A stretch of 64,000 nucleotides of DNA from NCBI GenBank assembly GCA_964187785.1, contig OZ076409.1:21702001-21766000 (forward strand), in the 5' to 3' direction. The notes beneath the pieces were generated by a model, which made no database searches, was not told the origin of the DNA, and saw only the letters and a list, made by a program, of their open reading frames with translations. The first letter of the stretch is position 1, and each line of letters starts with the position of its first letter. The stretch is from Amphiscolops sp. MND2022 (Eukaryota). Shown here in pieces: positions 2,631 through 49,225 of the stretch. Position numbers and translations under genes: made by a program.

Positions 2631-3910
2631 TAGAGACAGGAATTTTATGCATTTATAAGTGCCTGAATATGTCATATAAAATACATTTAAGATACCTCAA
2701 ATATGCGGAAAAAAATGCGTTTATGGAGACATAAATTTCAACCAAAAGTGGTAATTACAAAGACAAAACATCATTTTTGACAAAATAGACTCGGTTAAGT
2801 TTGTTCTTCGGTCAGTCAATACTAAATTAAAGCGACTGAATGCCCTTTCGGCGTCGCAATTTTCCAGCGGAAAACTTCCTGCCACAGCCAAATCTTGAAC
2901 GCCCCAATCTAATAATCGTCCAGTTTTTTCTTCCTTTTCGACGTATTTCTTCAAAATCAGCAGGCCTTCGTATTTTTCCATCAAACTTTGAATTTTGCGA
3001 CGGCTACCGGGTCACCCGTCTTTTCCTCTACCTTATTTAGCATATTAATATCAACTTGAATATCGGTTGTTTTTTTTTCGATTCTACCGATAGCCTCCTC
3101 CAAAACAACTGCAAAATTGTTGTTGATTCCATAAATTTGTCTGATGGTAGTAGGATTTTCCAGCCCGGCCTTTGCCAAGGGTATCGCCAAAGTTTCATCG
3201 TTTCCGACGGCATAAAGTTTTTGTAAGCTGGACAAACTATTTTTTCGAGAGGGAAATTGCTCGAGATCAACGCATTAGCCAACTCTTTATTAAAACTTCC
3301 ACAAGATGGGGTATTTGTAACAATGCCTTGCCTTTTGCTTAAAAGTAGGTTTTTCTTGTGTTTTTCACTTTCAATATGCTGCCCAACTTGACTTTCTCGT
3401 TCGAAAGATACGTTACAACAACATGCAGTACATACAAGTAAATGTTTTTCCGCTTTTAAGCAAATTTTAAACTCAGTTGCCATCTTTTTTGCACGTTCAG
3501 TGGCTGTAAGGGCCGGTTTTCCCATTTCAAACTAAAGAAAACAGTCGTTTGAAATAAATATGATTAGGAAATAACAGTTTCAAGCAGGCTTGTCATTTAT
3601 TGATTGATTCAATAAATATTGCAACTACTTACCTACCCAAAATCAATCCCCTCAAATTATAACATTGTAATTACGTCTGGTAATTTACTACTTTTATTAT
3701 TGAAAATCAATACATGACAAGCCTGGTTTCAAGGCAGTAGGTTTCACACGATCACAACAATAAAAACAGCCGTATTCCTGAGAAAAAGACCAAAGATGTG
3801 CTTTTATGTTGTCAGTCAACTGAATATGTGAACACATATGTGGCCACATGATTGGACGCGAAAATGAGATTGCATATTAAATATGTGAACACATATTATT
3901 CCTGTCTCTA
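2631..3910 (-). mobile_element. Internally deleted hAT-superfamily (CGGBP1-like) DNA transposon; frameshifted transposase remnant 3525-2721
   Basis: 13-bp perfect TIR TAGAGACAGGAAT (2631-2643) / ATTCCTGTCTCTA (3898-3910); 8-bp TSD ATAATTAC (2623-2630, 5143-5150); N-terminal CxxC...H...H zinc finger (CTACC...HIESEKH), ALISSNFPL motif, and C-terminal dimerisation-like CDAERAFSRFNLVLTDRRTNL. Confidence 0.85.
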
Positions 3911-5139: not shown

Positions 5140-6109
5140 CTAATAATTACCACTCGCTCGTTCCATCGCACGAGTATTGAAAGGTCGTCGGCAGCTTGAG
5201 AAATTTAATTCTCACGCTTACTTACAGTCACTCCCGAACAAATATAACATATCTGAATTATTCAGTATCGTGCGAAAAATTGTACTGAAAAAGAAGTAGA
5301 CATGTTGAGATTTCGATAATATTCCTGCTATCGCAGAAATAATAATAGCAAATGAAAAAATCGAATTTAGCATCACCCAACATGAAAGTTTATTTTCTCT
5401 CAACTGAAACAAATCTGATTGGCAAAAACGTTGCGCATTTCGATCAAGTTACTATAATGTAATTTTGATCACGATCGGAAATAGCAACGTCCCCCTACTT
5501 CTAGTGTGGGTAGGAAGCCCAAGGAACACACGCATCAACACAGTTGCGCCACAAAGAACTGGTGATTCATGTCAGGCATGGTGTTTTAAATTTCGACGTT
5601 GTCATGAATTTTTCATGTTTGTTGTTCACAACTGATGTTTGTCTTTCAGTGACTCAGGATGCTAAAATTTTTTGAAAGTTTCTCAGTCTATCGCGGGGTT
5701 TTAACCAAAATCTTTCGATTTACGTAGAAGTAGTAGAACGGGGTTATGTTTGTACCAGAAACGCAGAAAAAAACTATTACGGATTAAAGAGTTCATAACA
5801 AATCGAAAATTCGGAAATGAAATTCTTGGTATCACGGCGATAAAAAGAAACTTCACTACATATTCAATTACAGTATTGAGGAATAATCAAACATTATCAA
5901 TTTGAACTGGAATTGAAAAACTCAATTTGCACGGCGTTGGCCCAGTGAAACTAAACTGCTCACAACTATCTAAATAACTTTCAAACCTTCTAAACTTTTA
6001 CAAGCACCACACAAGAAATTATTGAGGAAACCCTTTAACTAAGAGGCTTCGCCCAATAGTGAGGCCAATAACTAATGAAATGTGTACTACTACTATCATT
6101 AAAAGCATA

Positions 6110-9100: not shown

Positions 9101-12100
9101 ATGCCGAAGTGTTGATCTGTTCATTTGATTCATATGAATTGCATCTGCACTTTCTCGAAGAGTCATACTTCTCAAAACAGTTGAATTTCGCTCCGAAAAT
9201 TTTTCAATCCGGGCAGAAAAACTGTAAACCTAATTTCAATGAAATTTCTTTAAAAAAATTCGTTAGAAACTGCTGGGAAATAAGCAGTTTTTAAAATTTC
9301 GTAAAAAATCGTTCAATTCGAGACTTTTCCAGGAACAACTTCAATGTTTTTTTTCGGAATGGGAAACTTCATTTTTGTCTGAATGGAGCATCCAAACCTT
9401 GATCTTTGAGCTTCAAAGTACGCGTTAATTACCTTTTGCATTCTTATTTCAATGCAGGCGAGGCTATTAGCGAGCAAAGATTCAGAAAACACTTGTTCAG
9501 TTCATGTCGACAGTGTCTCCCCATCTACTAAGAGAAAACTAGGTGCAAAGTTAAAAAAAGAATTCTGAAAAAAGTGCTGAACAAACTCGAGAAACAGGTG
9601 GAACAATAGGTTTTGATAAACATCCAGCTCACACAGAATTTAAAAAACTTGAACTTGAGCTTTAAAAAATCAATTTCAAAACTAATGATTTTCCTATCCG
9701 AGTATTTTGAGTTTTCAGCAGCGAAGCGGTGTATTCCTGAGACATTCCGTATTGTTTCGAAAGAGCGTGGTGCTGACTGCGCTTGATCTCTAGAATGGAT
9801 TCAGCTTAGTTCAACTTCTACTACGGTGAATATATGAAGGCAGTGGCCTAAAGCGACGAATCCGATCCTTTCTTCTCAGGAAATAATTTGATTTGTTGAG
9901 AATCAAAGGCCTCCCTACATTAATTAGGTTTCTGAGAACGGACTCATACGGACTTCGAGAACAGATATTCAATTCAATGGTAGAGTTCATGAACTTTGAT
10001 TGATTGAGACGAGTTCGCTAAAGAACACGTGGCAAATCAAGTTTATGAAGATGAATACAGAATTCGAATTTGGCAAAAAATCACTACGGTGAAACATTAA
10101 AGCTCAATCAACCGGAGCTGGTTGAATACAAACCTATTTCACGCACAAACTTCGAATCAAATCGTTTTCAAAAAATCCTCCAGCTAAAAACTACTTCCAA
10201 TCTAGGGGAGAACTGCTACAAAAAGTATGAGCCATTCTGGTCAATTGATTATGGCAGATAAAAAGAAAAACGTACTTTGAAGTCGGCACATTGTCCAAAC
10301 TTGAGGAGTGCTGCCCAGTCTTTACGGAGCCGATTGTCGACAGAGGGCGCGCGGGGTAGAGAACATTGGAGCTTGGACGTCTCAGGCCCAGTTTTGAGAG
10401 TCTGGTTGGACGAAAATTGTATCACTTCAAAAAACGCCTGAAATTTCAAAAATGCATTTTCAACATTGGTCCAATCTGGAACTCCAGTGACGTCATAAAG
10501 TTCGTAAGCTTTTAGCACCTGAAGTCATTGAAAAAATTCTGAAAAATTCTATACTCTAAGTTATTGTACCCCTGTCTTCTCATTTAGTACCCTGGCTGCG
10601 CAAAAAAAGTTCTTGCGAGGTAGTCGCAGGACTCCTCCATGCAATTTGCTTGCATTGTTTTGAAGAATTTCGCAAGATCATTCCTTATGACTCATTATTT
10701 ACTAGATCATTGCAAGCAATGCAATCGACGCAGGAATAACATTTCGCTACAAGACCTTGTGAAGAGTTCGATGAAAGCAGGGATAGTGCAAGACTCTTGC
10801 CAATATTGTGCTTTGTCTAAACCGAAATACTTACACCAGCTCTCTCAAAACGATAACTTACATTATTTTAAATTATAAAAATCTATACTCTCAGTTGAAA
10901 GGATACTGCAAGACCCGAGCCAGTTATCAAATCGAAACTTCCGTAAAAATCGCATGCCGAATCGTTGTCCGCTTCCGTGAAAACATTTTACATAATTGAC
11001 AGCACGAAGTGGGGACACCTTCGAACTATCTCTTATTGCACAATTCATCACCAGATAAAAATTCCAACAAATCTGAATAACAAAAATTATATCACTATAA
11101 AGAATGAGAGGCAAGTAAAAAGCAGCAGGTCGAATTTTACGTCATATTTCAGCGACTAAAATTCCATTAATTGTTGAAATGGCTATTTGAAAGCTGTACA
11201 AAAGTTTCATCACGAAGATTTTCAATTTTTTAACAAAGCTGAGTTTCTGTTTTGTTTATTATGTTACAAACAATCAACATTCTCTAGTTAACAACCAAAG
11301 TAATGAACACTTTATATTTTAAAAAGGAAAACGGTTGTATTGGGATCAAGCAAGTAAAAACCAAGAAGTTTTTGAGGCCAAGAATGAACTCTGTAGCCTG
11401 GAGAAAAATAGTCAATACATTAGCCGGGACATTTTCTCAAAAAAATGTGTGTATTGAAAACAAGCTGATGAAAATCAAAGAACGAGACCAGATCAAAGCC
11501 AACAAAGATTACTTGAAACCTTCAACAATCTCACATGGCCGACAAATATCCATACACGGAAACCCAAACTCTTACCTAGGTACGTGAGGACCCATTTCGT
11601 GATAAGAATTCGAAAATCGCACAAAGAAAGAACCGACAAAAACCAAAACGATACTCGAAAAACTTACTTGAACCTTTTGAGTTCAATCATCTTCAAACAG
11701 ACGCCAGATGAACACTTGGATATCATCTGCCCTGACCTATTTCAGCGAAAATATATTAAGGCTGAGGCGTAGCCGATGATTTAACAACTCATGGAAAAAC
11801 TTCCAGCAATTTGTTCAATTTCAACCGTTTTTGAAAAAACTGATTTTTTACAAAAATTGCTAAGTAGCTAATTGTTTCGTTGCTGAGCTCTGTGGAATGA
11901 CATAACAGTTAAGAATTTGTGGGAAAAATCTGAAATGAGAACAAAACGTTTAGTTCATTCTAAACCATTTTTCTTCACACAAAAGATTTTGTCGATAATT
12001 GTTGCACTCTAATAGCCAATCATTTGCATAACGTCATTTTCCCAACTCCTCAAAGCAAGTTATGATAACATATTTGCAACCAAGTGGTGAATCAATGGCC

Positions 12101-15100
12101 AGAATTGGAGCTTTGGTTTTCGAGTGACCTACCCGGTGTCAAGTGTCCCAATGGTCTGACTTTTATTTGTTGACTTGTCTTCCCGAAATTCGTTTTTGTC
12201 ATGATCTCACCATTGTTTAAGTTCCAAGAATGGTGAGTTCAGAGATGCGAAATTGATCCCACGTCAATAGAGGCAGGATACGCGTGATGAATACGTCATG
12301 AACACGAGCAAAGTTCTCAACAACTTTTGGATGATTTCAACAAAGCTGAAAAAAACTTTAGTCTCCTTAAAAATATGTTAAATAGCTCTATTGTTTTGGT
12401 TTTCAACTATTGATTTTCATACACTTGCGAACATTCGAAAATGTACATTCGCATTGAACGTTGCATTCACGCAATTTTGTAAGCGCTTTCTGAAAACAGT
12501 GCAAGACACAGTGGCAACTTTCTATTCGCCAGCTGTCATTGTAGTGACCAAAATCTAAAGGTATCTCTAGGTTATACTAAATTGATTCAGATAAAAACCC
12601 GATAGCCTGTTGGTTGGAGCCTCAGTCCGGTAAGCAATGGGATCTGGGTTCACGAATCCTGCTCAGGTCTAACTCTTTTTGCTGTCATGTCGAACGTTAG
12701 AAATTCCGCTTTAGGATGCATAGTGCGCTTTAGGTGTATTTAGTTATCAAATCCAGTTATAACTTCAGAAAACGTTAATTCCGTTCTTTTACGTCCGGCT
12801 CAGTTGAAAACAAGTTTGAAATCTAGAAAATGCCGAAGTGTTGATCTGTTCATTTGATTCATATTAGTTGCATCTACACCTTCTCGAAGAAGCATAATTC
12901 TCAAAACAGTTGAATTTCCCGCCGAAAATTTTTGAATCCGGGCAGAAAAACTGTAAACTCAAACTTAATTTCAATGAAATTTCTTTTAAAAAATTCCTTA
13001 GAAACTGCTGGGAAATAAGCAGTTTTTGAAATTTCGTAAAAATCGTTCAATTCGAGACTTTTCCAGAAACAACATCAATGTTTTTTTTCGGAATGGGAAT
13101 CTTATTTTTTGAATGGAGCATCCAAGCCTTGATCTTTGAGCTTCGAAGTACGCGTTAATTACCTTTTGCATTCTTATTTCAATGCAGGCGAGGCTATTAG
13201 CGAGCAAAGATTTAGTAAACACTTGTTCAGTTCATGTCGACAGTGTCTCCCCATCTACTAAGAGAAAACTAGGTGCAAAGTTAAAAAAAGAATTCTGAAA
13301 AAAGTGCTGAACAAACTCGAGAAACAGGTGGAACAATAGGTTTTGATAAACATCCAGCTCACACAGAATTAAAAAAACTTGAACTTGAGCTTTAAAAAAT
13401 CAATTTCAAAACTAATGATTTTCCTATCCGAGTATTTTGAGTTTTCAGCAGCGAAGCGGTGTATTCCTGAGACATTCCGTATTGTTTCTTTCGAAAGAGC
13501 GTGGTGCTGACTGCGCATGATCTCTAGAATGGATTCAGCTTAGTTCAACTTCTACTACGGTGAATATATGAAGGCAGTGGCCTAAAGCGACGAATCCGAT
13601 CCTTTCTTCTCAGGAAATGATTTGATTTGTTGAGAATCAAAGGCCTCCCTACATTAATTAGGTTTCTGAGAACGGACTCATACGGACTTCGAGAACAGAT
13701 ATTCAATTCAATGGTAGAGTTCATGAACTTTGATTGATTGAGACGAGTTCGCTAAAGAACACGCGGCAAATCAAGTTTATGAAGATGAATACAGAATTCG
13801 AATTCGGCAAAAAATCACTACGGTGAAACATTAAAGCTCAATCAACCGGAGCTGTTGAATACAAACCTATTTCACGCACAAACTTCGAATCAAATCGTTT
13901 TCAAAAAATCCTCCCGCTAAAAACTACTTCCAAACTAGGGGAGAACTGCTACAAAAAGTATGAGCTATTCTGGTCAATTGATTATGGCAGATAAAAAGAA
14001 AAACGTACATTGAAGTCGACGCATTGTCCAAACTTGAGGAGTGCTGCCCAGTCTTCACGGAGCCGATTGTCGACAGAGGGCGCGCGGGGTAGAGAACATT
14101 GAAGCTTGGACGTCTCAGGCTCAGTTCTGAGAATGTGGTTGGACGAAAATTGTATCACTTCAACAAACGCCTGAAATTTCAAAAATGCATTTTCAACATT
14201 GGTCCAATCTGGAACTCCAGTGACGTCATAAAGTTCAGAAGCTTTTAGCACCTGAAGTCATTGAAAAAATTCTGAAAAATTCTACACTAGTTATTGTACC
14301 CCTGTCTTCTTATTTAGTACCCTGGCTGCGCCAAAAAGTTCTTGCGAGGTAGCCGCAGGACTCCTTCATAATTTTGCAAGGTCATGCATTCCGTTTGGAT
14401 TGTTTTGAAGAATTTCACAAGATCATTCCTAATGATGTATTATTTACTAGATCATTGCAAGCAATGCAATCGACGCAAGAATAACATTTCGCTACAAGAC
14501 CTTGTGAAGAGTTCGATGAAAGCAGGGATAGTGCAAGACTCTTGCCAATATTGTGCTTTGTCTAAACCGAAATACTTACACCAGCTCTCTCAAAACGACA
14601 ACTTACATTATTTTAAATTATAAAAATCTATACTCTCAGTTGAAAGGATATTGCAAGACCCGAGCCAAGTTATCAAATCGAGACTGTTCCGTAAAAATCG
14701 CATTACGAATCGTTGTCCGCTTCCGTGAAAACATTTTACATAACTGACAGCACGAAGTGACACACCTTCCAACTATCTCATAAGCAGCTAAATTATTGCA
14801 CAATTCATCACCAGACAAAAAATTCCAACAAATCTGAATAACAAAAATTATATTATAAAGAATGAGAGGCTAGTAAGAAGCAGCAAGTCAAATTTTACGT
14901 CATATTTCAGCGACTAAAATTCCATTAATTGTTGAAATGGCTATTTGAAAGCTGTACAAAAATTTCAACACGAAGATTTTCAATTTTTTAAAGCCGAGTT
15001 TCTGTTTTGTTTATTACATTACAAACAATCAACATTCTCCAGTTAACAACCCAAGTAATGAACACTTTATATTTAAAAAAGAAATCAGTTGTATTGGGAT

Positions 15101-18100
15101 CAAGCAAGTAAAAACCAAGAAGTTTTAGAGGCCAAGAATGAACTCTGTAGCCTGGAGAAAAATAGTCAATACATTAGTCGGACATTTTCTCAAAAAAATG
15201 TGTCGACTGAAAACAAGCTGATGAAAACTAAAGAACCAGCACAGTTCAAAGCCCACAAAGGAAACTTGAAACCTTCAACAATCTCACATGGTCGACAAAT
15301 ATCCATACACGGAAACCCAAACTCTTACCTAGGTACGTGAGGACCCATTTCGTGATAAGAATTCGAAAATCGCACAAAGAAAGAACCGACAAAAACCAAA
15401 ACGATACTCGAAAAACTTACTTGAACCTTTTGAGTTCAATCATCTTCAAACAGACGCCAGATGAACACTTGGATATCATCTGCCCTGACCTATTTCAGCG
15501 AAAATATATTAAGGCTGAGGCGTAGCCGATGATTTAACAACTCATGGAAAAACTTCCAGCAATTTGTTCAACTTCAACCGTTTTTGAAAAACTGATTTCC
15601 TTTTACAAAAATTGCTAAGTAGCTAATTGTTTCATTGCTGAGCTCTGTGGAATCACATAACCGTTCAGAATCAGTGAAAAAATCTCTAATGAGAACAAAA
15701 CTTTTAGTTCATTCTAAACAATTTTTTTTCATACAGAAGATTTTGTAGAAAATTGTTGCACTCTAATAGCCAATCATTTGCAAAACGTCATTTTTCAACT
15801 CCTCAATGCAAGTTATGATAACATATTTGCAACCAAGTGGTGAATCAATGACCGGAATTGAAGCTGTGGTTTTCGAGCGACCTGCCCGGTGTCAAGTGTC
15901 CCAATAGTCTGCCTGACTTTTATTTGTTGACATGTCTTCCCGAAATTCGTTTTTGTCATGATCTCACCATTGTTTAAGTTCCAAGAATGGTGAGTTCAGA
16001 GATGCGAAATTGATCCCACGTCAATAGAGGCAGGATACGCGTGATGAATACGTCATGAACACGAGCAAAGTTCTCAACAACTTTTGGATGATTTCAACAA
16101 AGCTGAAAAAAACTTTAGTCTCCTTAAAAATATGTTAAATAGCTCTATTGTTTTGGTTTTCAACTATTGATTTTCATACACTTGCGAACATTCGAAAATG
16201 TACATTGGCATTGAACGTTGCATTCACGCAATTTTGTAGGCGCTTTCTGAAAACAGTGCAAGACACAGTGGCAACTTTCTATTCGCCAGCTGTCATTGTA
16301 GTGACCAAAATCCAAAGGTATCTCTAGGTTATACTAAATTGATTCAGATAAAAACCCGCTAGCCTGTTGGTTGGAGCCTCAGTCCGGTAAGCAATGGGAT
16401 CTAGGTTCACGAATCCTGAACAGGTCCAACTCTTTTTGTTGTCATGTCGAACGTTAGAAATTCCGCTTTAGGATGTATAGTGCGCTTTAGGTGTATTTAG
16501 TTATCAAATCCAGTTATAACTTCAGAAAACGTTAATTCCGTTCTTTTACGTCCCGCGCAGTTGAAAACAAGTTTGAAATCTAGGAAATGACGAAGTGTTG
16601 ATCTGTTCATTTGATTCATATTAATTGCATCTGCACTTTCTCGAAGAGTCATACTTCTCAAGACAGTTGAATTTCCCGCCGAAAATTTTTGAATCCGGGC
16701 AGAAAAACTGTAAACTTAAACTTAATTTCAATGAAATTTCTTTTAAAAAATTCGTTAGAAACTGCTGGGAAATAAGCAGTTTTTGAAATTTCGTAAAAAT
16801 CGTTCAATTCGAGACTTTTCCAGAAACAACATCAATGTTTTTTTTCGGAATGGGAATCTTATTTTTTGAATGGAGCATCCAAGCCTTGATCTTTGAGCTT
16901 CGAAGTACGCGTTAATTACCTTTTGCATTCTTAATAATACAGAATTCGAATTCGGCAAAAAATCACTACGGTGAAATATTAAAGCTCAATCAACCGGAGC
17001 TGTTGAATACAAACCTATTTCACGCACAAACTTCGAATCAAATCGTTTTCAAAAAATCCTCCCGCTAAAAACTACTTCCAATCTAGGGGAGAACTGCTAC
17101 AAAAAGTATGAGCTATTCTGGTCAATTGATTATGGCAGATAAAAAGAAAAACGTACTTTGAAGTCGACGCATTGTCCAAACTTGAGGAGTGCTGCCCAGT
17201 CTTCACGGAGCCGATTGTCGACAGAGGGCGCGCGGGGTAGAGAACATTGAAGCTTGGACGTCTCATGCTCAGTTCTGAGAGTGTGGTTGGACGAAAATTG
17301 TATCACTTCAACAAACGCCTGAAATTTCAAAAATGCATTTTCAACATTGGTCCAATCTGGAACTCCAGTGACGTCATAAAGTTCAGAAGCTTTTAGCACC
17401 TGAAGTCATTGAAAAAATTCTGAAAAATTCTACACTAGTTATTGTACCCCTGTCTTCTTATTTAGTACCCTGGCTGCGCCAAAAAGTTCTTGCGAGGTAG
17501 CCGCAGGACTCCTTCATAATTTTGCAAGGTCATGCATTCCGTTTGGATTGTTTTGAAGAATTTCACAAGATCATTCCTAATGGTGTATTATTTACTAGAT
17601 CATTGCAAGCAATGCAATCGACGCAAGAATAACATTTCGCTACAAGACCTTGTGAAGAATTCGATGAAAGCAGGGATAGTGCAAGACTCTTGCCAATATT
17701 GTGCTTTGTCTAAACCGAAATACTTACACCAGCTCTCTCAAAACGACAACTTACATTATTTTAAATTATAAAAATCTATACTCTCAGTTGAAAGGATATT
17801 GCAAGACCCGAGCCAAGTTTTCAAATCGAGACTGTTCCGTAAAAATCGCATTCCGAATCGTTGTCCGCTTCCGTGAAAACATTTTACATAACTGACAGCA
17901 CGAAGTGACACACCTTCCAACTATCTCATAAGCAGCTAAATTATTGCACAATTCATCACCAGACAAAAAATTCCAACAAATCTGAATAACAAAAATTATA
18001 TTATAAAGAATGAGAGGCTAGTAAGAAGCAGCAAGTCAAATTTTACGTCATATTTCAGCGACTAAAATTCCATTAATTGTTGAAATGGCTATTTGAAAGC

Positions 18101-21100
18101 TGTACAAAAATTTCAACACGAAGATTTTCAATTTTTTAAAGCCGAGTTTCTGTTTTGTTTATTACATTACAAACAATCAACATTCTCTAGTTAACAACCC
18201 AAGTAATGAACACTTTATATTTTAAAATAGAAATCAGTTGTATTGGGATCAAGCAAGTAAAAACCAAGAAGTTTTAGAGGCCAAGAATGAACTCTGTAGC
18301 CTGGAGAAAAATAGTCAATACATTAGTCGGACATTTTCTCAAAAAAATGTGTCGACTGAAAACAAGCTGATCAAAACCAAAGAACGAGCACAGTTCAAAG
18401 CCCACAAAGGAAACTTGAAACCTTCAACAATCTCACATGGCCGACAAATATCCATACACGGAAACCCAAACTCTTACCTAGGTACGTGAGGACCCATTTC
18501 GTGATAAGAATTCGAAAATCGCACAAAGAAAGAACCGACAAAAACCAAAACGATACTCGAAAAACTTACTTGAACCTTTTGAGTTCAATCATCTTCAAAC
18601 AGACGCCAGATGAACACTTGGATATCATCTGCCCTGACCTATTTCAGCGAAAATATATTAAGGCTGAGGCGTAGCCGATGATTTAACAACTCATGGAAAA
18701 ACTTCCAGCAATTTGTTCAATTTCAACCGTTTTTGAAAAAACTGATTTTTTACAAAAATTGCTAAGTAGCTAATTGTTTCGTTGCTGAGCTCTGTGGAAT
18801 GACATAACAGTTAAGAATTTGTGGGAAAAATCTGAAATGAGAACAAAACGTTTAGTTCATTCTAAACCATTTTTCTTCACACAAAAGATTTTGTCGATAA
18901 TTGTTGCACTCTAATAGCCAATCATTTGCATAACGTCATTTTCCCAACTCCTCAAAGCAAGTTATGATAACATATTTGCAACCAAGTGGTGAATCAATGG
19001 CCAGAATTGGAGCTTTGGTTTTCGAGTGACCTACCCGGTGTCAAGTGTCCCAATGGTCTGACTTTTATTTGTTGACTTGTCTTCCCGAAATTCGTTTTTG
19101 TCATGATCTCACCATTGTTTAAGTTCCAAGAATGGTGAGTTCAGAGATGCGAAATTGATCCCACGTCAATAGAGGCAGGATACGCGTGATGAATACGTCA
19201 TGAACACGAGCAAAGTTCTCAACAACTTTTGGATGATTTCAACAAAGCTGAAAAAAACTTTAGTCTCCTTAAAAATATGTTAAATAGCTCTATTGTTTTG
19301 GTTTTCAACTATTGATTTTCATACATTTGCGAACATTCGAAAATGTACATTCGCATTGAACGTTGCATTCACGCAATTTTGTAAGCGCTTTCTGAAAACA
19401 GTGCAAGACACAGTGGCAACTTTCTATTCGCCAGCTGTCATTGTAGTGACCAACATCCAAAGGTATCTCTAGGTTATACTAAATTGATTCAGATAAAAAC
19501 CCGCTAGCCTGTTGGTTGGAGCCTCAGTCCGGTAAGCAATGGGATCTAGGTTCACGAATCCTGAACAGGTCCAACTCTTTTTGTTGTCATGTCGAACGTT
19601 AGAAATTCCGCTTTAGGATGTATAGTGCGCTTTAGGTGTATTCAGTTATCAAATCCAGTTATAACTTCAGAAAACGTTAATTCCGTTCTTTTACGTCCCG
19701 CGCAGTTGAAAACAAGTTTGAAATCTAGGAAATGACGAAGTGTTGATCTGTTCATTTGATTCATATTAATTGCATCTGCACTTTCTCGAAGAGTCATACT
19801 TCTCAAAACAGTTGAATTTTCCTCCGAAAATTTTTCAATCCGGGCAGAACAATGTAAACCTAATTTCAATGAAATTTCTAAAAAAAAATTCGTTAGAAAC
19901 TGCTGGGAAGTAAGCAGTTTTTGAAATTTCTCGTGAAAATCGTTCAATTCGAGACTTTTCCAGAAACAACTTCAATGTTTTTTCGGAATGGGAAACTTCA
20001 TTTTTGTCTGACTGGAACATCCAAACCTTGATCTTTGAGCTTCAAAGTACGCGTTAATTACCTTTTGCATTCTTATTTCAATGCAGGCGAGGCTATTAGC
20101 GAGCAAAGATTCAGTAAACACTTGTTCAGTTCATGTCGACAGTGTCTCCCCATCTACCAAGAAAAAACTAGGTGCAAATTTAAAAAAGAGAATTCTGAAA
20201 ATTGTGCTGAAGAAACTCGAGAAACAGGTGGAACAATAAGTTTTGATAAACATCCAGCTCACACATAATTTAAAAAACTTGAACTTGAGCTTTAAAAAAT
20301 CAATTTCAAAACTAATGATTTTCCTATCCGAGTATTTTGAGTTTTCAGCAGCGAAGCGGTGTATTCCTGAGACATTCCGTATTGTTTCTTTCGAAAGAGC
20401 GTGGTGCTGACTGCGCATGATCTCTAGAATGGATTCAGCTTAGTTCAACTTCTACTACGGTGAATATATGAAGGCAGTGGCCTAAAGCGACGAATCCGAT
20501 CCTTTCTTCTCAGGAAATAATTTGATTTGTTGAGAATCAAAGGCCTCCCTACATTAATTAGGTTTCTGAGAACGGACTCATACGGACTTCGAGAACAGAT
20601 ATTCAATTCAATGGTAGAGTTCATGAACTTTGATTGATTGAGACGAGTTCGCTAAAGAACACGCGGCAAATCAAGTTTATGAAGATGAATACAGAATTCG
20701 AATTTGGCAAAAAATCACTACGGTGAAACATTAAAGCTCAATCAACCGGAGCTGTTGAATACAAACCTGTTTCACGCACAAACTTCGAATCAAATCGTTT
20801 TCAAAAAATCCTCCAGCTAAAAACTACTTCCAATCTAGGGGAGAACTGCTACAAAAAGTATGAGCTATTCTGGTCAATTGATTATGGCAGATAAAAAGAA
20901 AAACGTACTTTGAAGTCGGCGCATTGTCCAGACTCGAGGAGTGCTGACCAGTCTTCACAAAACCGGTTGTCGACGGAGGGCGCGCGGGGTAAAGAATATT
21001 CGATCTTGGATGTCTCAGACTCAGAGATGAGGATGATTTTGTGATGCACAGTGAGGATATCGTTTGGCGAGTATTTGTCAGTGTCGCTCAAAAAGTCATG

Positions 21101-23759
21101 ACTCATGAATTTCTTGAAGCAGACCCCGAACTGGTTAGCACCTTCTAGCCTTTTGGGCGGAGTTTTTTTCGTGAAGCATAGGTTACCGTCTTTGTCCACA
21201 ATGGCCAACTCGAACTTGAGAGTCTGGTTCGATGAAAACTGGATCACTTTAACGAACACCTGGAATTTCAAGAATGCATTTAAACACTGGCCTAATCTAT
21301 AACTCAATTGACAATATAAAGTTTATTTTATTGAAGTTTTTATCACCTGAATTTAGGAAAATTCTAGAATGAACTATTCTCTAGTTTTTGTACTCCTGTC
21401 TTGTTATTTATAACCCTGGTTATTTTAAATTAATAAAAATTTATACTCTCAGTTAAAAGGATATTGCAAGACCCGGGCCAGTTATCAAATCGAGACTGTT
21501 CCATAAAATTCCAAACGGAGGGCCCTCAAATCTTATCTAAGTACCTAGGACCCTTTTCGTGATAAAATGATTTCTGAGAATGATCGCACAAAGTCGAAAA
21601 ATCCGAGAATAAAAACATCAGAGGTAATCACACTTTAAAAAATTACTTGGACCTTATGAGTTCCATTAATAACGGACGCCAGTTGGAAACTTGGATGAAA
21701 TCTGACATGAACTATTTCAGCGACAACATATTGAGGCTGTGGCGTAGCCGATGATTCAACAACTCACGGAAATTAGTAATCTATAACTTAATTGACGTAC
21801 GTTATAACGTTTATCGAAGTTTCTATCACCTTAATTGAATTCATTGAGAAAAGTCTAGAATGAACTATACTCTAGTTTTTTGTACCCCTGTCTTGTTATT
21901 TATAACCCTGGCTGCGCAAAAAAGTGCTTGCTGGGTAGTCGCAGGATTCCTTCAGGGTCTTGCAAGATCATGAGTTTTGATGGATTTCTTGAAAAAATGT
22001 CGCTCGCAAGATCGTTGCTTATGATGCATTATTTACTAGATCATTGCAAGCAATGCATTCGACGCAGGAATCGTAAAAGGATTACACTTCTCTGAAAGAC
22101 CTTCCAAAGAGTGTGATGAATGCAGGTATAGTGCAAGACTAGCAAGAATTGTGCTTGGTCATGATTTTTACACTAGCTTTGTCTCAAAACACTTTATTAT
22201 TTATCGGTAACAAGCCGGGACCGGCCCTAGTCGGCGCCATATCCAAGGCTCAAAAATAGCAAAAGGACTTCCAAGTGTTAATTTACAGTACTCGAAAATC
22301 GAAAAACCAAAAAAATGGACCGAGTGGCGCGCCGCGGCCCGCTAGTGCGAGCCCCTGGCGGGCTAAAAGGGGGGCCACTTCCGAATTTGCCAACATTTCT
22401 GTCGCACAGTTGAAGGGAGGACCCTTTGGAGAAAAAACAAATTTTCGTGAAGTCTCACAGTACCGAAAAACTGAAAGGGGGGACCCTTTGGGGTTTTTCA
22501 ACATCCATTCTGTCGCAAAACATCAAAAAATTGAAGGGGGGAAATTTCATTTTCGGAAGAAAATCTCACAGTGCCGAAAAAAACTGAAAGGGGGGACCCT
22601 CTGTGATTTTCCAACATCCATTCTGACACAAAACAGCAAAAAAAATGAAGGGGGGACCCTTTGGGGAAAAAGTTTTCCGAAAAAAAGTCTCACAATGCCG
22701 AAAAAAACTGAAAGGCGGACCTTTTAGTCTCCCGGTATGGTATGTTACGCGGAAAAAGGAAAAACCTTTTTGGTTCAGTTCGCTAGGCCAAATGATTCAA
22801 TTTGGGGCCATAAAATTTTGTAGAATTTTTGAGAACTATTTTGTTCAGTTCGTGTGGATTGAAAAAAGTCACTGTGAGTCGCGTTTCACTTCATGAAGCG
22901 CCGACTAAAAATATCAACTCTCAGTTCAATGTTATTTCAAAACCCGAGCCAGTTATTGCAAGACTGTTCCCTAAAGATCGCATTTCAATTCGCTGTCGGC
23001 TTTCACGAAAACCTTTCACATAATTGACAGCGCGAACTGGGCACATCTTCGAACCATTCTGATATAAAGCAAAACTATTGCACAATTCATCGCCTCACAA
23101 AACTTTCCAACATATCTGAATAACAAACGTTAGTTAGATCACGGTTGTGAACGAGAGGCTAATAAAGGTTCAACATCGAGAATTTTACGACATTTAAAAC
23201 CTAAAACTCCACGAATTAAAATAGCTATTCGAAAGCTGTACTAAGACAAATATTTTCAGTTTTTTAACAAGGCTGAATTTGTTTTGTTCATTACATTGTA
23301 AGCAATCAACATTCACTAGTTAACACAACCCAGGTAATATAAACTTTATATTTCAAAATATAGTTAGAAATCGACTTTATTAGGAGGATCAAGCATGCAA
23401 ACACCTCGAAAGTTTTTCAGAGACTATGAATGCATAAACTTTAATTTCTACAAAAAAGGAACGCGAACCTGAACATAGTTGTTGGCCTGGCATGCTTGTT
23501 CTCCAGTCATGCCTTTGGGAAATATATGGCTAGCCCATCTCACGCCCCCGAACTCGAAGATGGGGCTCTCCAGTTTCTCGTCCTGTAGACACACGGAGAA
23601 ATTCTCTATTGACCACAGCACAGAATGACACTTGACACTGCGCTTGGAGATGTAGTGTTCGTTGGCATCCAACGAGTGACACCGTTTCAAGCTGCTCGAA
23701 GGACTTGAGCCACTATTCATTTCGATTGCCTCGAATGCACGGCTGTTTACTTCACCCAT
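6110..23759 (-). CDS. SPOP-like MATH-BTB (Cullin-3 adaptor) protein, ~370 aa; exons 23759-23469, 21259-20909, 6934-6729, 6374-6110
   Basis: All introns are GT-AG with compatible phases (0,0,2). The joined protein reads WSIENFS...SPIFEFGGVRW...FPKG...NYVQ|VFVKV...FKKFMSHDFL (MATH), ADFK|ITVDSKEIPTHKAVLVARSPVFRAML...FLKYLYTG (BTB) and ANKYDVPGLKSECQYFL...ITVENAAEILIIADMH (3-box/BACK-like). Orthology to SPOP itself is not established. Confidence 0.88.
8868..8941 (+). repeat. Degenerate tRNA-derived (SINE-head-like) segment repeated once per array unit (also ~12597, ~16354, ~19499)
   Basis: A-box-like TAGCCTGTTGG and B-box-like GGTTCACGAATCC (2-nt insertion) at tRNA-like spacing. Confidence 0.45.
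10276..10437 (-). other. Duplicated, internally deleted exon-2 copy (162 nt, phase 0-0), candidate cassette exon A
   Basis: TTTCAG|GCG acceptor, AAA|GTACGT donor; open frame AFFEVIQFSSNQTLKTGPETSKLQCSLPRAPSVDNRLRKDWAALLKFGQCADFK. Confidence 0.75.
14009..14170 (-). other. Duplicated, internally deleted exon-2 copy (162 nt, phase 0-0), candidate cassette exon B
   Basis: Same acceptor/donor context; AFVEVIQFSSNHILRTEPETSKLQCSLPRAPSVDNRLREDWAALLKFGQCVDFN. Confidence 0.75.
17157..17318 (-). other. Duplicated, internally deleted exon-2 copy (162 nt, phase 0-0), candidate cassette exon C
   Basis: Same acceptor/donor context; AFVEVIQFSSNHTLRTEHETSKLQCSLPRAPSVDNRLREDWAALLKFGQCVDFK. Confidence 0.75.
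21300..23440. repeat. Older, more diverged partial copies of the array unit in intron 1
   Basis: 21860-22140 resembles 10550-10800; 22910-23440 resembles 7190-7700 and 10880-11400. Confidence 0.7.
22209..22910 (-). mobile_element. Complete Helentron-type (HINE/DINE-like) element, family A
   Basis: Asymmetric IR TAGTCGGCGC (22228-22237) / GCGCCGACTA (22898-22907), hairpin GCCGG-GA-CCGGC (22214-22225), element 3' end CTTGTT, T-rich target, no TSD; the paralogous empty site is visible near 7176-7200. Confidence 0.85.
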
Positions 23760-23913
23760 TTGCACTTACAGCTCACAAAGCATGAGCGGGCATACATCGC
23801 AGGAATGTTCCAGGATACAGTTTAGAGGGGAAAATGCGGGTAAAGATTACAGAGTCTATCTGAAAATGACATGCAACAAACTCAGAAGTGATAATCAGAA
23901 AATGTAGTTTTCA

Positions 23914-24453
23914 AAAATAGGCCCCTCCGGGGCTCAGTACTATTTCTGCTTTAATCTTTATTTTTTTTGAAACAAAAAATTCATTAATAAAAGAATCATA
24001 TCTGGAATACCAATACACTCTTGTTTAATCATTATTTAGCGCACAATTACATGTAATCACTGTACAAGTTTACACCGCCTTTAATTCTTCCCGGACTAAA
24101 GAAAATATAACTACTAAGCGTAGACGAAGTTTCGCATTCGCATTTGAATGCAGGCGAAGCGCTCAACGAACGAATAATTAACACTCATTCGCTTCATCTC
24201 AATAACTCGGGGCAAGAAAGCACAATTACGAACATTCGCTCGCTTCATCTCAATGACGTCAGCATACGAATGGATAATTACCACTCGCTCGTTCCATCGC
24301 ACTAGAATTGAATTGTCTTCGGCAGCTCTCTCGCTTACACTCACTGCCGAACAAAATATCTGAATTATTCAGATCGTCCGAAAAATTGTACTGAAAAAAA
24401 ATAAGTAGACATTTTCGGATTTCAATAATATTCCTGCTAAAGCAGAAATATTA
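23914..24453 (-). mobile_element. Uninterrupted Helentron-type element, family C
   Basis: 13-bp IR TATTTCTGCTTTA (23941-23953) / TAAAGCAGAAATA (24438-24450), hairpin GCCCC-TCC-GGGGC at one end, and a palindrome overlapping the IR at the other end. Confidence 0.8.
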
Positions 24454-25250
24454 AAAACCCAAATATCTAAGTTTCTGAAATGCATAACTTAAATCAAGGT
24501 TTGCCTACTGGCTCGTATGAAACAGGAAATATCAGGATATTTAGATATCGATTGAAAATCGCAACTGCAAAGGCTCAGCCAGTATCAAAAGTTAGAAAAA
24601 TAATGCAGTGTTTTCGATAGTCATGATTATCGTAGCGCTTCAATTTAAGCATTTGTGGACCAATAACACCAGATATTGATCACATTGGATCTTTAGTCTA
24701 TCTATTTCTTTTGGAGTTTCAAACATTCATTAGTGAGTCATACAACCTACACTTGCTTAAACCTAAACTTGGGTTAGCGTAGTAGCTGTGGCTTCTAAAT
24801 AACTAACGTTAACTAAATAACTAAAAGTGCTGCTGATGGAAAATCTAACAAGCAAATTGCTGCATGTTTCCCATGAAGCAACATGGAAACATCTGCATTA
24901 GCCACGAGTTCACCCCTTTGGGGTGTCATCGATATGTTGAAACGTAGTCAACCAAATACGGCACTAACTTTTCACAATCGGATGTTGATTTTGGCGACAA
25001 ACCATTCAGAAAGAGTTTGAACGTTACCAGTCTATTTTTTTTACAATCGGTTTCCGGTCATTTTCAGTCTTTCAAAGTAAAATTTTCATTTAGTCCAAAA
25101 AATTTGCCCGAAATCACTTGATATTCACTATTTTGCAAAGACTCCCTTATAGCGGCGAAAGCCTTTTGGGAGTCTTTTCAGTGCGAAGCAAGTTGAAAAC
25201 TTACGATTGTCTGTTTCATTTATCGTGTCACCCACCGATAAAATAGATTA

Positions 25251-26561: not shown

Positions 26562-29500
26562 CTACTACTACTACTAAAAGACTGAATTGATACTAGTCAA
26601 CACAAAAGAACAACTTGATGATAACATGTACAGATTTTTTTTTAACAACAGCTACATTTCAGGAACATTTTACAGCCACTATCTTCATATTTAGTTTTGT
26701 AGTGATTCCAGTAAATTCTCTTTAGATCGGATTCAAATGCGGCAGGGTGGTTTGGCAGTTTGATGTTGTATTCTTGTTGTACAAAATTGCTAAGTTTGAT
26801 GATTCGATTGAAGAAAAATTCCCGTGTACACTTTAAACGTGTGTAGTCAGACATGAAAATATTTTTGGTGTTACTTCTGAGCTCATAATTATTGTTGTGT
26901 TGATTTGAACACACATAATCCCATATGGTGAAGTCATAAAGGCCCATTGTGAGCTTGTTGAACAGTAGCAGATCCTGCATTTGAAGATGTAAAGAAATCG
27001 GTAAATGGTGATATTTGTCAAGAAGTTGATGAAATGAGCTCCTATAGTCAATCCACTTGAAACAGATCCGCTGCAGCCTTTGTATTTTTTTAAGTCTCCT
27101 CTGTTCGGATGCCAAACACCTGAAGCATAAGCAAGTGCGGGTAAAATGTAGATGCGGTACAATTTAAATTTCATGTCAGGGTTAAGCATTTTAGGAAGGT
27201 TCCGACGTAACATGGCTAGGCGTTTATAATTTGCTATTTTAATATTTATGTGATCGGTCCATGTCAAATTTGGAGAGACCCAGACACCAAGAACACGAAT
27301 ACTCTTTGTTGTAGGATAGATATCATTTTCTCCCATGTGTAGGACAAGGTTATCACATTGCATCTTTGATTTACTGAAGTGTAATAATTTCGTCTTCTGC
27401 AAGTTAAAGTCGAGTTTGTTTTCTTCACTCCACTTCATTAGTGATAACAAATCGTTCTGAAGCTCGAACAGAGATGAACTTGCCAGTTTAAGGTCGTCAG
27501 CGAATAGAAATGGAACACACTCACAATTCTCGGGCAGGTCATTTATAAACGCAATGAAGAAAAGCGGGCCGACCACTGAGCCTTGGGGCACACCACTTGT
27601 AATAGGACACTCTTCTGATTGACAGTTTTCAATTTTAACTTGTTGCATTCGGTTTTGCAAATATGAAGCTATTAGTTTGAGTAGAGATCCACCCAGACCC
27701 AGAGATCGTAGTTTTTTCAGTAGTATAGAATGAGGGACTCGATCAAATGCTTTAGAATAATCCAAATAGATTGCAAAGGCTTTTTCTTTGGAATCGATCC
27801 ACTCAAAGATTTTATCAAAGAACGACAGTAACTGGATGATACATGATCGGGATTTTCGAAAACCAAATTGATGGGAGGATAGTTTGTCCTGTAGATGCTT
27901 GGAAATGCTCCTGAAAAGAATTCTTTCAAATACGAGTGAAAGTTTGCTCAAAGAAGCAATTGGACGGTAGTTGGCTATCTCATTTTTCAATCCCTCTTTG
28001 AATATGGGTGTGATAATGGTTTTTTCCAGGATGTAGGATACACTTCAGTTTCTACGATAACCTTTGATAGGTTGTAGAAATGTATTGAGAGACTGTTTGA
28101 ACACTTTCGTAAAATTTGACCATGAATACCATCAGGGCCAATGCCATCAGTTGATAAATCTAGAGCCTCTTTTGCGATTTCGGTAGATAGTTCTACATCA
28201 TTCAGTACATTATCAGTAAAATCGGTGAATGTATCGTCAGAAGCATTGAATACTGATCCAAAATACTGATTGAAGGCGTTTGCAATTTTGGAACTTCCAG
28301 TAATTTTTTTCTTTTTGGGATCAATCATTGTCTTCGGAATGTCGGAAATTTTGAGTTTTCTAATCAGTTTGTAACAATCATTTACATCACCATTTACGGC
28401 ACAAAACTTGTCGAGGAATACATTTGTGTCCAACTCAATAGAATTTTCAAGTTCTTTACAGATAGTAATGTATTTCATATAATTTTTCAAGTTGAGGCCA
28501 TTTAGTTGCTTTAATTCTGTTTGGAGGCAGTTGAAGAGATGAATACTGTGAGAGCTCAAGTAATCCGGCAACATTTTTCGCTTTTGCCGTTTGCTAACTA
28601 AGAACTGTTTGAGAATGTTTTGAAATGAAATCAGCCAGTCCGCAATGAAGTCGACAGAATTTTGGTCTAGTTCGAACGAGAATAGTGACTGAGCTAGTGT
28701 TAGGTCAATCGAATTTATGTCGGTTGCTGCGAGACTGTATTGTTTGAGGTCAGTTTGTGTGTACATTGTTTCAGAGTTTTTAGGGATACCCACAGATATG
28801 CTGAAATGGATGTTTTTCAATATCAAGAACTTCAGGCTCGTCATAGTTTGAAAATACCAGGTCAAGGACATTACCATCTTTGTGGGTTGGTTCCTTTACA
28901 AGCTGGGTGAAATTTTTAGCAGTAAGGAATTTTTCGGTTTCACAGAAATATTCTGTACTGATCGCTGGGAACTGTGCCCAATCCTCGTTTGGTAAGTTGA
29001 AATCGCCCATAATTAATACTTTATCAATGGAAGCGTTACTGAGAACATTATAGGCCGAGGATAAGCAATTTGAGATTACATCATCAGGAACACGATACTC
29101 ACTAGGGTTTGGAGGATTGTATAAAACAATAATTCCATAGGTATCAATTGATATACCACAACAAAATGTATTGTCCAAGCATTCTATTTTTGATGCAACC
29201 AGTTCTTTTTTTGCCATAATAGCCACACCTCCATGCTGATTTGTTTCACGCACGGCTTTTGCTATGACTGAGTAGGCAGCTGTGAGAAAAGTATTGTCTG
29301 AAGAAGATTCATCCCACCAGGTTTCAGTAAGGCAGAGAATATCAGGTAATCTTGATTGGAGAATACACGATAAGTGAAGTCTTTTTTCTAGGGATAAGAT
29401 ACTGCGGCAGTTTAAAAGAAAGATGCGGTGGACATTTTCGTAATTTTCTAGTCAGTTCACCTCTACCAGTTCGTTGTCTTTGTAGAGTCTCAATTTTTTT

Positions 29501-30560
29501 TATTTTCAAACGGCTACGATCTATGCCACTCCTGATCAATTCGTAACGTTTGGCTAACAGTTGTCTTTCCAGTAAAAGGTCCTTTGGGGACAGTTCAGGG
29601 GTGATCAAAACCCTTTTGTTTAGGTAATATTTTTTCTCGATGGCCTTTGCGATGACTTTGCGAGCATCCCATACAGATCCAAATGTTACAAGTAGGTTCC
29701 GAGTTCTATTTTTATCAAATTTCCCGAGTCGTTGAGTTTCAATAACATTTCCGGAGCAATTTAAATCATCAAGAACCTTTTCGACTTCGGACTTATCATG
29801 CAGTTGTCTATCTATGAAAAACTTGGAATCCATTTCCTCAATTCCGGATATTCTGATTTTGTAATGATAATTATTGTCCTCAGTTATGGTCGTTTCAGGT
29901 ACATGCCGATCTCGTGTTTTAGGTTCTTTCGTAGATATAGGAATTTTGTTCGGCAACTTTTCTTCAATGACGTTTTCGACGATTGTTTTGATATCTTTTT
30001 TAAGTTCATCTAGTTTAGCATTTTCAGTTGAGTCATCAAAGGCTGATTTTTTGCTAACACACGAATCACAAAAATAGAAATTTTCAGACGAGGATAAGTA
30101 AACGAATACTTCCTTTGGTATTTTCAGACACTGAGAGTGAAGCCAGTGAGAACATTTTTCACATTGAATCCAGTCCCTCGTTTGTTGCGATCCATGACAT
30201 ACAGAACAGAGTCCATGATCCACAGCACATGTTCCACCCAGTTGAGTTGTCCCATCACTGTTGGAAGAGGAGACCAGTGCACTTCTTGTGAGAACCATCA
30301 TCAAGTTTTCATATAACCGGAAACTATTTAATAAGTTTATCACAACAATTAGGCTTATGGTTCAATACTCAATCGGAAGGACCTAAAACTTTTTATGTGT
30401 GAAAAAAATTAGGTTCGACAGAAATGCCAATAAGGGCTAAGGGCTGATTGACAAAACGGGTTTTGATTTTAAACTGTTGTTTTTAGAGGTCAAATCAAAA
30501 TCACGAGTTGAACCAACGGTTAAAAATCTACAGTTTCGATTTTCCGTTTACAAACATACA
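26562..30560 (-). mobile_element. Near full-length CR1-group LINE: ORF1 with PHD finger (~30301-29450), ORF2 APE endonuclease + RT (~29430-26642) broken by frameshifts
   Basis: PHD CSVC...WIQCEKCSHWLHSQC...YFCDSC; APE motifs LCLTETW, GGVAI, MGDFNLP, VLDLVF; RT motifs NYRPIA, YLDYSKAFD, GVPQGSVVGP, FADD; (TAG)n 3' tail at ~26562-26576. The 5' end is approximate. Confidence 0.9.
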
Positions 30561-45468: not shown

Positions 45469-47362
45469 CTAGTCCTCTTCGTCCTCATCGGCATCTCCGT
45501 CATCGCCCTTGCCATTAGCCACTCTGTTCCCTCCGCCAGTGGTAGAGTCACTTTCGTCGCCACTTTGGTCGTCGTCACCGGCCACTTCTTGGTTCATTTG
45601 TTCCAGTCTCTCCAACTGCTTCGCAAACTCCACGTCATCTGATTTGTTGACCACTTTGGGCTAAAATACGTCGATTTATTTTCATCGCAACCTAAATTGA
45701 TATTAGCCAAAATATGACGCTAATGCTACTGACTGAAGCGGAAGACGTTTGTGGATATGCAAATTCAGGTTTGATAAATTTACAGGAATGCTTTGGGATG
45801 AAATATCTAAATAGAACTGTGGGAAAAATACATGTGAAACTGGACAAGTGTTGAAGCCGAAAGCATTTCTCAACCCATTGAATAGGCAAATGTGTTATTC
45901 TCAATACCTCCATAACAACTTTGAAAAATCCCCCAGCATCTGTGATGCTTTCTTCGATCTCTCCGATAGCTTTGTTCACAGCCGCTAGTCCGTCGGTATG
46001 ATCTAAAGTTGTGACTGTTACAACGTATTGAGGGGGCGCTATTAAATTCACCTGAAACGTTCACTTGCAAGTATATCATTCATTAATCTTTCACAAACCC
46101 AAAGTATTGCAAATCATTGAAACTTACAGATATTTGCATGTCTTCAGTGGAACAAGCAATTCCTTTTTTAAGCGACCTTTTGATAGCATCTATTCCTTCA
46201 AAGTTGAAACAGGAAACTTCGATATCTGAAACGATAGATGTTCAACAAGCACAAAGAGTGACTCGGGGAATTCGATTTAAAAATTGTGATTTCAAACCGG
46301 CTCTAATTTTAACTGGATTGGGAGCGAGTCTCCTTTGAATCTCTTCAGCTAGCATTTCTCTGACATGATTTTCTAACGGGCATTCATCCAAAACAGACGG
46401 ATCAGCAACTGCCTTTTTGAACCATTCATAAGATGCGTTGTCTTGTTTGTATTTCTCGTCAAAATACCACGCAGAGTTCTGGTACAGGTCTTCCAAGTCA
46501 CTGTCTTCCTTATAATTTAATTTTTGGGCCACATTTCTGAGGATGAGGTTGATTTTATTGCCCTTAGCAAATTTGCTGTTGCAGAAATCTCTATCCTCTG
46601 GGCTCGCTCTTCTCTTAGAGCAGTCGATATATCCTAAAAGCAAAAGTCCAGATTAAAAATCGGCAACTGTTACCTTTGGAATAGATTTGAAGAAAATTTT
46701 CAACCTTTAACGGTATCAACTCTGACAACAACGACGGCTTCGTTCCTTCCCACTCGGATAAGTTTGGTGATAGATCTGATTCGTCTTCTCGAAAGTTCTC
46801 CCATCAGAATCATTCCTATAAAAATGCAACGTTCATGGTAAGAAACAGTATACACCAGAATGGGGGTATCAGGGTTATTAGGATACACAAATCTCAAACA
46901 GGTTCAATGAACCGAAATTGGCTTCTGACTGGAAAAGAGAACAATTGTGCTATCTAGATATTCAAATGAAAAACTCAATTTAGCAGCAAGTTTCTCTTTA
47001 TAATCCAATCTTCAAGAAGTGCAGTAAACGCGAGAAAAATTGAATCGTTTATTGAGAAGACGTTTCATTCTTAGAAATAAGTTTCGAACTTGACTGAAGA
47101 ACAAAGATACAAAGATTTTTTCGTTTCATACGACTGCGCAAAAATGGCTAGCTGAATACACTTTCAAATATACACATAATTATCAACTTCAAAATAAGGG
47201 ATCGATTCACAAACCTTCGATGTTATTGTATTCAAGAAGTCTCACATACGCTCCCATGTCTTCTATTACTTTGATTTGCACCATAACAAGTTCTTCAGCG
47301 GCAGGATACTTTGCCCGGTAGAAGCGACAGTTCAAATTAGCGGTACTCACAGTTCCAGCCAT
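45469..47362 (-). CDS. EIF2S1: Eukaryotic translation initiation factor 2 subunit alpha, ~342 aa; exons 47362-47215, 46815-46705, 46633-46298, 46225-46128, 46051-45908, 45660-45469
   Basis: CRFYRAKYP...[30 protein letters not shown]...KG|YID.SKRR...KIRA|DIEVSCF...NLIAPPQYV, acidic C-tail; all introns GT-AG and in phase. Confidence 0.96.
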
Positions 47363-48878: not shown

Positions 48879-49225
48879 TTCTTTAAGACAGACTCGAAGA
48901 GACGAACGTTAACGTTCAACTAAAGAAACTAAACGAATACCCGGGAAACGCATATGTTATTCCAAAGGTTTTTCACTTTTTAAACGTAGCGTACAAAACT
49001 GGATAAATGTAAAGGGTCCCCCTTTTACTTTTTCAAGGAAACCTACAAAACCGGACGTGTCTAAAGGGTCCCCCTTTGGATTTTTTCGGCACTGTGCGAC
49101 TTTTTTTCTTAAATTTTTTATTGTCCCCAAAGGGTCCGTCTTAGAGTTTTTTTGATATCTTGCAGCAAGCGAAAGTGCCAAAAAGACCAAAGGGTCTCCA
49201 CTTCTAAGTATTTCGGCACAATGAG

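Follow-up and report, generated by a model that had tools for sequence, protein, structure and literature searches.

The window, a 64-kb stretch of DNA analysed here at its full length, carries a SPOP-like gene with four coding exons on its minus strand (Table 1), and the joined product has 369 aa. The Pfam family MATH_2 is detected in exons 1 and 2, both times under the curated cut-off because the MATH domain is split over these two exons. BTB in exon 3 and BACK_BPM_SPOP in exon 4 both pass the Pfam cut-off. By these domain tests the gene is a predicted SPOP-like MATH-BTB-BACK ubiquitin-ligase adaptor.

The closest named relatives are the acoel SPOP-like proteins P0002 (Convolutriloba macropyga, XP_075259432.1) and P0004 (Symsagittifera roscoffensis, XP_063714242.1), to which the identity per exon is 79-84% over all four exons, with an unbroken frame; the DNA therefore likely comes from an acoel. 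P0002 matches human SPOP in sequence (E 2e-42), and SPOP structures are the top fold matches of its model, which is based on a 25-sequence alignment and has a mean pLDDT of 79. This model resembles SPOP MATH structures; the identity to P0002 is 81% for exon 1 and about 80% for the gene overall. Both relatives have 354 aa and contain no internal repeat; they were compared as proteins, with introns outside the comparison, so short exon copies may be present there too. When P0002 was used as a protein-search query, P0001 alone was close among 39 matches.

The gene calls P0005 and P0006 of the same cluster end or begin at the exon 1 and exon 2 borders of the SPOP-like gene, and introns 1 and 2 therefore predate the array of exon copies described below. 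Creation of intron 2 by duplication was ruled out, as P0006 stops at the identical donor position. P0001 and P0003 (215 aa) run from the exon-2 acceptor directly into exon 3 and then leave the family sequence, a form that is either a partly spliced transcript or the result of intron 2 loss in that lineage. An in-frame ATG at 23720 corresponds to the start of the named relatives, and the ATG at 23759 adds 13 residues. The exon-1 donor (GTTCGC, 23468-23463) is farther from consensus than the other donors.

Table 1. Exons, introns and short exon copies of the SPOP-like gene, with positions in the window
Feature	Position	Strand	Description
Coding exon 1	23759-23469	(-)	N-terminus and first MATH part; MATH_2 E 1.2e-6; 81% identical to P0002
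Intron 1	23468-21260	(-)	2209 nt; relic pieces P, Q, R, S and T of the repeat block
Exon 2	21259-20909	(-)	351 nt, phase 0-0; C-terminal MATH (MATH_2 E 0.0018), linker, first BTB helix, start of next strand
Repeat intron U1	20908-17319	(-)	3590 nt
Short copy A	17318-17157	(-)	162 nt, 54 codons
Repeat intron U2	17156-14171	(-)	2986 nt; carries a 610-nt deletion
Short copy B	14170-14009	(-)	162 nt
Repeat intron U3	14008-10438	(-)	3571 nt
Short copy C	10437-10276	(-)	162 nt; if joined to exon 3, predicted source of the first BTB helix
Repeat intron U4	10275-6935	(-)	3341 nt; exonless shortened block at its end, then about 150 nt of unique sequence
Exon 3	6934-6729	(-)	206 nt; BTB core, BTB E 2e-15
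Coding exon 4	6374-6113	(-)	BTB end, SPOP-type BACK domain, stop; BACK_BPM_SPOP E 1.2e-7

Between exons 2 and 3 lie three short copies of exon 2, termed A, B and C. All have an open frame and phase 0-0, are preceded by CAG and followed by GTACGT, and lack an identical in-frame stretch of 189 nt; their 54-aa peptides are all distinct. An earlier sequence-only reading of the window had described the copies in these terms, and we confirm its description. The 3' part of exon 2 matches the copies with blastn E-values of 1e-32 to 1e-33, and the homology is therefore well beyond chance. No Pfam family was found in any of the three 54-aa copies. A and B differ at 3 sites (3 replacement), A and C at 9 (7 replacement) and B and C at 10 (8 replacement), so that the ten differences with eight non-synonymous ones counted earlier hold for the copies starting at 14170 and 10437 and not for the other two pairs.

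The best breakpoint of the deletion lies after exon position 44-46, at or beside the boundary between codons 15 and 16. A 4-nt match, in register, is common to both ends of the deleted stretch, in keeping with an ordinary deletion. A cryptic intron of 189 nt within exon 2, removed from an mRNA that then returned to the genome, is not favoured; the nearest GT...AG pair would give the wrong join.

Repeat blocks and proposed history of the array

What is repeated is a 3.0-3.6 kb block in which intron and exon travel together, not a free-standing cassette. The array had been placed at 10276-21259, where the copies indeed lie, but it is wider and extends from about 23432 to 7083. The four repeat introns diverge from one another by 2.49-8.69%, the value for U4 taking in its unalignable 3' end. 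The relic block in U4 has the order R (8094-7841), P (7695-7188) and the start of Q (to 7083), and contains no exon.

The blocks contain pieces of intron 1, beginning 36 nt past the exon-1 donor. Intron 1 itself consists of P (23432-22906), Q (22160-21777), R (21772-21505), S (21511-21420) and T (21419-21260), followed by exon 2, with S and T being repeats of the ends of P and Q. From this arrangement we infer that intron 1 comprises two old blocks, the first without an exon, and that the array amounts to at least six blocks, two of them exonless; partial duplications could yield the same pattern. Between P and Q, a repeat-family insertion occupies 22209-22911; it is not present in the young blocks, and its relatives are found in inverted orientation at 40673-41416, 48085-49162 and 50448-50556.

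Compared with their block copies, the intron-1 pieces differ at 102 of 500 positions (P), 63 of 336 (Q), 51 of 249 (R) and 31 of 151 (T), corresponding to 19-22%, and at 6 of 91 positions in the case of S. The last relic of P, in U4, shows 32 differences over 502 positions. Divergence of about 20% for some pieces and of a few percent for others therefore indicates one old layer and one young layer. Along the alignment of the blocks the closest pair shifts, with 3 pattern switches across 28 informative sites in the first 3100 columns (permutation P 1e-5), and this mosaic pattern is, judging from the alignment, the mark of unequal exchange or conversion.

These layers suggest a history in three steps. 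An old duplication, dated by the intron divergence of about 20%, would have copied a block that began at the start of intron 1, took in exon 2 and ended within intron 2. The 189-nt deletion would have come next, in the downstream copy, and recent amplification and loss via unequal exchange (2.5-8.7%) would then have left two blocks exonless. An origin by duplication is close to certain whether the copies are included in the transcript, are silent passengers or encode decoys.

Could the array result from expansion during assembly or from merged haplotypes? At 60464-62797, a perfect tandem copy of 1167 bp shows that exact duplicates do occur in the window. The four blocks, however, are 2.5-8.7% apart, have accumulated 28 indel events over 3000 columns, include a 610-nt deletion and form a block-wise mosaic. 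Two haplotypes or read error therefore cannot produce the array, and we regard an artefact of this kind as hardly credible.

Coding content and possible splicing of the short copies

On P0002, exon 2 covers residues 82-198, of which the deletion removes 97-159. In the P0002 model, half of strand 93-102 and every strand up to 149-161 would be lost, while strand 82-88, the linker 163-178, which is a low-confidence coil, and the BTB helix 179-191 are retained. According to PMC8138767, the hydrophobic substrate pocket of human SPOP is made up of F102, M117, Y123, W131 and F133. The deleted part aligns to human SPOP F102-V164 by hand count on the SPOP alignment, and the region aligned to all five pocket residues falls inside it. 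In the gene, the positions of F102, W131 and F133 are all occupied by F and that of Y123 by K, again by hand count and with a loop alignment of low confidence. L186, L190 and L193 of SPOP build the BTB dimer interface (PMC4910529); at the equivalent positions every copy has L, W and L, and exon 2 has F, W and L. The linker is described as flexible in human SPOP (PMC9998093). Copy C, folded alone from its single sequence, gives a coil and one helix at a low-confidence pLDDT of 50. The SPOP alignment and the P0002 model thus bear out the domain logic proposed earlier, by which the substrate-pocket region is removed and the linker and first BTB helix are kept.

We hypothesize that the short exons are passengers of an intragenic tandem duplication of 3.0-3.6 kb units and that they are included after exon 2 and do not replace it, a reading to which we give an even chance. 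Inclusion would likely lengthen the MATH-BTB linker by up to 162 residues with both domains whole, giving predicted products of 423, 477 or 531 aa. The copies would look like ordinary exons to the spliceosome; MATH would still be built by exons 1 and 2, and the first helix of BTB would come from whichever copy is included last. Selection would keep the frame only, since the gene would lose its function through any frameshift or stop in a copy that is spliced in, and the amino acids would be free to change. A linker of variable length had been one of two ideas put forward from the sequence, and it is the likelier of the two. Against inclusion, the named relatives keep a 354-aa protein without repeats. 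Spare dimer-interface helices could also be harmful, which would favour skipping.

The splice signals of the copies resemble those of exon 2. The donors of A and C are the same as the exon 2 donor, and that of B differs at -1, the last exon base. At the acceptors, pyrimidines fill 11 of 18 positions, as many as in exon 2, with more T and a longer AG-free stretch. Only 4 differences separate the 220-221 nt after exon 2 from those after copy A; the donor side has been refreshed by recombination, and the donors are therefore not independent evidence. No silencing feature was found at the copies. Most tandem-duplicated exons become constitutively spliced, as stated in PMC8373072.

Products containing the copies were sought among known proteins. 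With exon 2 as query, 2 matches were obtained among 78 longer candidates. With copy A as query, there was 1 match among 8 longer candidates, P0044, which is a genomic read-through of the window itself. An exhaustive protein search for an isoform with a copy returned P0044 and P0045 only, and P0045, a 1608-aa repeat protein, was judged to be a chance match arising from its repeats.

Exon exclusion can come from a frame clash or from a very short intervening intron. Neither device is present in the array, in which all exons are 3n in length and of phase 0-0 and the introns measure 2986-3590 nt. Frame clash is among the exclusion mechanisms named in PMC8373072. Docker/selector pairings were looked for because duplication with flanking intron can create competing pairings (PMC6071210). 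A blastn comparison of the gene with its own reverse complement gave 6 matches, none of them significant (E-values of 0.26-0.92 for the best), in a search that short or G-U-rich pairings would escape. A 40-nt imperfect palindrome occurs in each repeat intron, at 19104-19143, 15959-15998 and 12202-12241 (E 0.92, not significant). Since both of its arms are present in every block, pairing of arms across blocks is possible.

These results bear on the other idea of the sequence-only reading, a nascent system of regulated alternative exons in which a copy replaces exon 2 to give a substrate-blind, BTB-intact decoy of 306 aa, or in which one exon is chosen at a time. Exon 2 and the three copies are all of phase 0-0, and any choice among them would stay in frame, so a form with a dead MATH and an intact BTB is encodable by simple arithmetic; that such an isoform is made is at most a prediction. 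The deletion takes out the pocket-aligned region and stops at the last MATH strand, the dimer positions L, W and L are kept, and the comparison of exon 2 with the ancestor of the copies departs from neutrality (see below). However, that ratio takes in the constrained exon-2 branch, the copies themselves drift neutrally, and their lengths are unlike that of exon 2. There is also no exclusion mechanism in the form of a frame clash, a steric limit (the introns are about 3 kb) or significant pairing. Moreover, the MATH half from exon 1 would be without partner strands and its product likely unstable, as far as the P0002 model indicates, and copy C alone is modelled as the coil and single helix described above. 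We therefore find the decoy or alternative-exon system unsupported and consider it distinctly improbable.

A broader role for the array is rather unlikely in our judgement. It would be a working part of a conserved Cul3 adaptor in which unequal exchange adds or removes 54-residue units between MATH and BTB, the last unit owns the BTB dimer helix in place of exon 2, the reach of MATH is adjusted through copy number or partial skipping, and skipping of exon 2 occasionally yields decoys.

Selection on residues and reading frame

Since their common ancestor the copies have acquired 9 replacement and 2 silent changes, small counts for which the expected neutral replacement share is 0.77. Change among the copies appears neutral on these counts, which match the neutral drift that the sequence-only reading had raised as a caveat. 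Exon 2 is separated from the inferred ancestral copy by 11 silent changes and 12 replacements, a departure from neutrality with P 0.011, with a dN/dS of 0.28 that includes the constrained exon-2 branch, half of the path. With P0001, P0002 and P0004 as outgroups, 5 replacements were assigned to exon 2 and 7 to the stem of the copies, two of the 12 by parsimony only.

The path to each copy carries 10-12 replacements, compared to 13.6-16.1 expected under neutrality on the intron clock (P 0.07-0.40). If the faster clock of silent sites is used (0.18 per lineage), the stem of the copies is short of neutral replacements (P 0.003-0.013), and an early constrained phase is therefore possible. Such a phase would suit a different origin, namely that whole-gene copies in tandem were fused by deletion and left the array as a remnant, or that the gene is a relaxed paralogue backed up by a clean copy at another locus. 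The start of the block 36 nt into intron 1 is also what fusion with a neighbouring gene could give. Yet second copies of exons 1, 3 and 4 are absent from the 64-kb window, and all four exons retain their identity to the named relatives with no break in the frame, which makes this origin very improbable.

The first 15 codons are the same in exon 2, P0001, P0002 and P0004, while the copies carry 6 distinct replacements there; the MATH strand that they encode is therefore no longer constrained in the copies. Exon 2, by comparison, has undergone 5 replacements against 14.9 expected under neutrality (P 0.003), with none in the first 15 codons, and has therefore stayed functional. All 5 are located in its 3' 39 codons, the stretch duplicated in the copies, and 4 of them leave a residue common to copies and relatives, including the position aligned to SPOP L186. 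These replacements would fit an eased constraint on the stretch that the copies duplicate. This 3' part is still below neutral (5 vs. 10.7 replacements, P 0.045), and it is fast-evolving anyway, as P0001 and P0002 differ at 9 of the 39 positions.

For the reading frame, the introns of the blocks provide a reference, with 28 indel events in 3000 columns per 190 substitutions, 23 of the indels not being a multiple of three. In simulations that left the copies free from the split onwards, a frame without stop or frameshift, a kept AG and an in-frame deletion occurred together with a chance of 0.002-0.013 over six parameter sets. The same chance rose to 0.054-0.068 if only the last 11 substitutions were free, the copy having served as a full-length exon until just before the amplification, and to 0.16-0.20 for a late deletion without the one-in-three deletion factor. 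These values are to be read with the finding having been chosen for its open frame, and with intron indel rates that may exceed exon rates. They provide moderate evidence that the reading frame of the copies matters to the gene, in which case the copies would be spliced in at least part of the time.

The main alternative to inclusion is that the copies are silent pseudo-exons, exon 2 joining exon 3 directly and the open frames being left from recent origin and chance. The replacements per copy are within the neutral range of the intron clock, two blocks have no exon, the proteins of the relatives are without a repeat, and a late-deletion history gives the frames a survival chance of 5-20%. This chance falls to about 1% or less, however, if the copies were free since the split, and their splice sites match those of exon 2, a constitutive exon, with nothing found that would silence them. 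We see silent pseudo-exons as a possibility of some weight, but lean against it.

Known exon arrays and the surroundings of the gene

Intragenic tandem exon duplication, as presented in PMC8373072, comprises adjacent homologous exons copied with flanking intron, on the same strand and in symmetric phase, and the array shows this feature. In contrast to the cases described there, its copies are internally deleted and span half of the MATH sheet and the first BTB helix but no whole module, and their inclusion is a prediction. The exclusive clusters of Dscam1, 14-3-3zeta and Mhc (PMC6071210) likewise consist of homologous exons between constitutive exons, duplicated with the intron. In those clusters the exons are of similar length, which in the array applies only among the short copies, with 162 nt against 351 nt for the parent exon. 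The array is further set apart by having no significant docker/selector pairing and by variants that are neutral (9:2). The array resembles ordinary intragenic tandem exon duplication, and the Dscam-type features that were tested fail. It is a further example of a process already known, rather than a system of a new kind.

Dominant inhibitors are known in SPOPL and in forms of SPOP that are dead in substrate binding. A BTB-intact, weakened subunit of this type could enter SPOP oligomers, as the 306-aa form might. SPOPL keeps its MATH domain and is altered in BACK, according to PMC4910529, whereas the 306-aa decoy would instead need skipping of exon 2. A literature search, with most subscription journals outside its scope, returned no account of exon duplication in SPOP or MATH-BTB genes or of acoel SPOP.

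The locus offers a snapshot of an intragenic exon array arising and decaying within a conserved gene. It also lends itself to testing whether new exon copies can be preserved by the frame alone when their amino acids are unconstrained. If the copies are included, a SPOP-type adaptor would accommodate as many as 162 additional linker residues together with three spare dimer helices, with consequences for the distance that MATH can reach from the oligomer.

Elsewhere in the window, exons of two neighbouring host genes were recognized on the minus strand, one of eIF2-alpha (46245-46652, E 9e-12) and one of the sodium/hydrogen-exchanger family (35257-35709, E 1e-7). A LINE-like element at 26836-30361 (-) is in pieces, with a PHD-finger ORF, an endonuclease and a reverse transcriptase in separate frames, and more reverse transcriptase fragments occur at 42730-43962 (-) and 49322-50356 (+). 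The sequence upstream of the gene at 23912-24454 has a 78-91% copy downstream of it, at 2043-2630 and 5143-5345. This copy is interrupted twice, once by an insertion of 293 bp (2218-2510, 97% to 40978-41266) and once by a stretch of about 2.5 kb containing a weak zinc-finger ORF at 3040-3531. The 1167-bp duplication mentioned above is arranged head to tail and is 100% identical, being either very recent or an assembly artefact.
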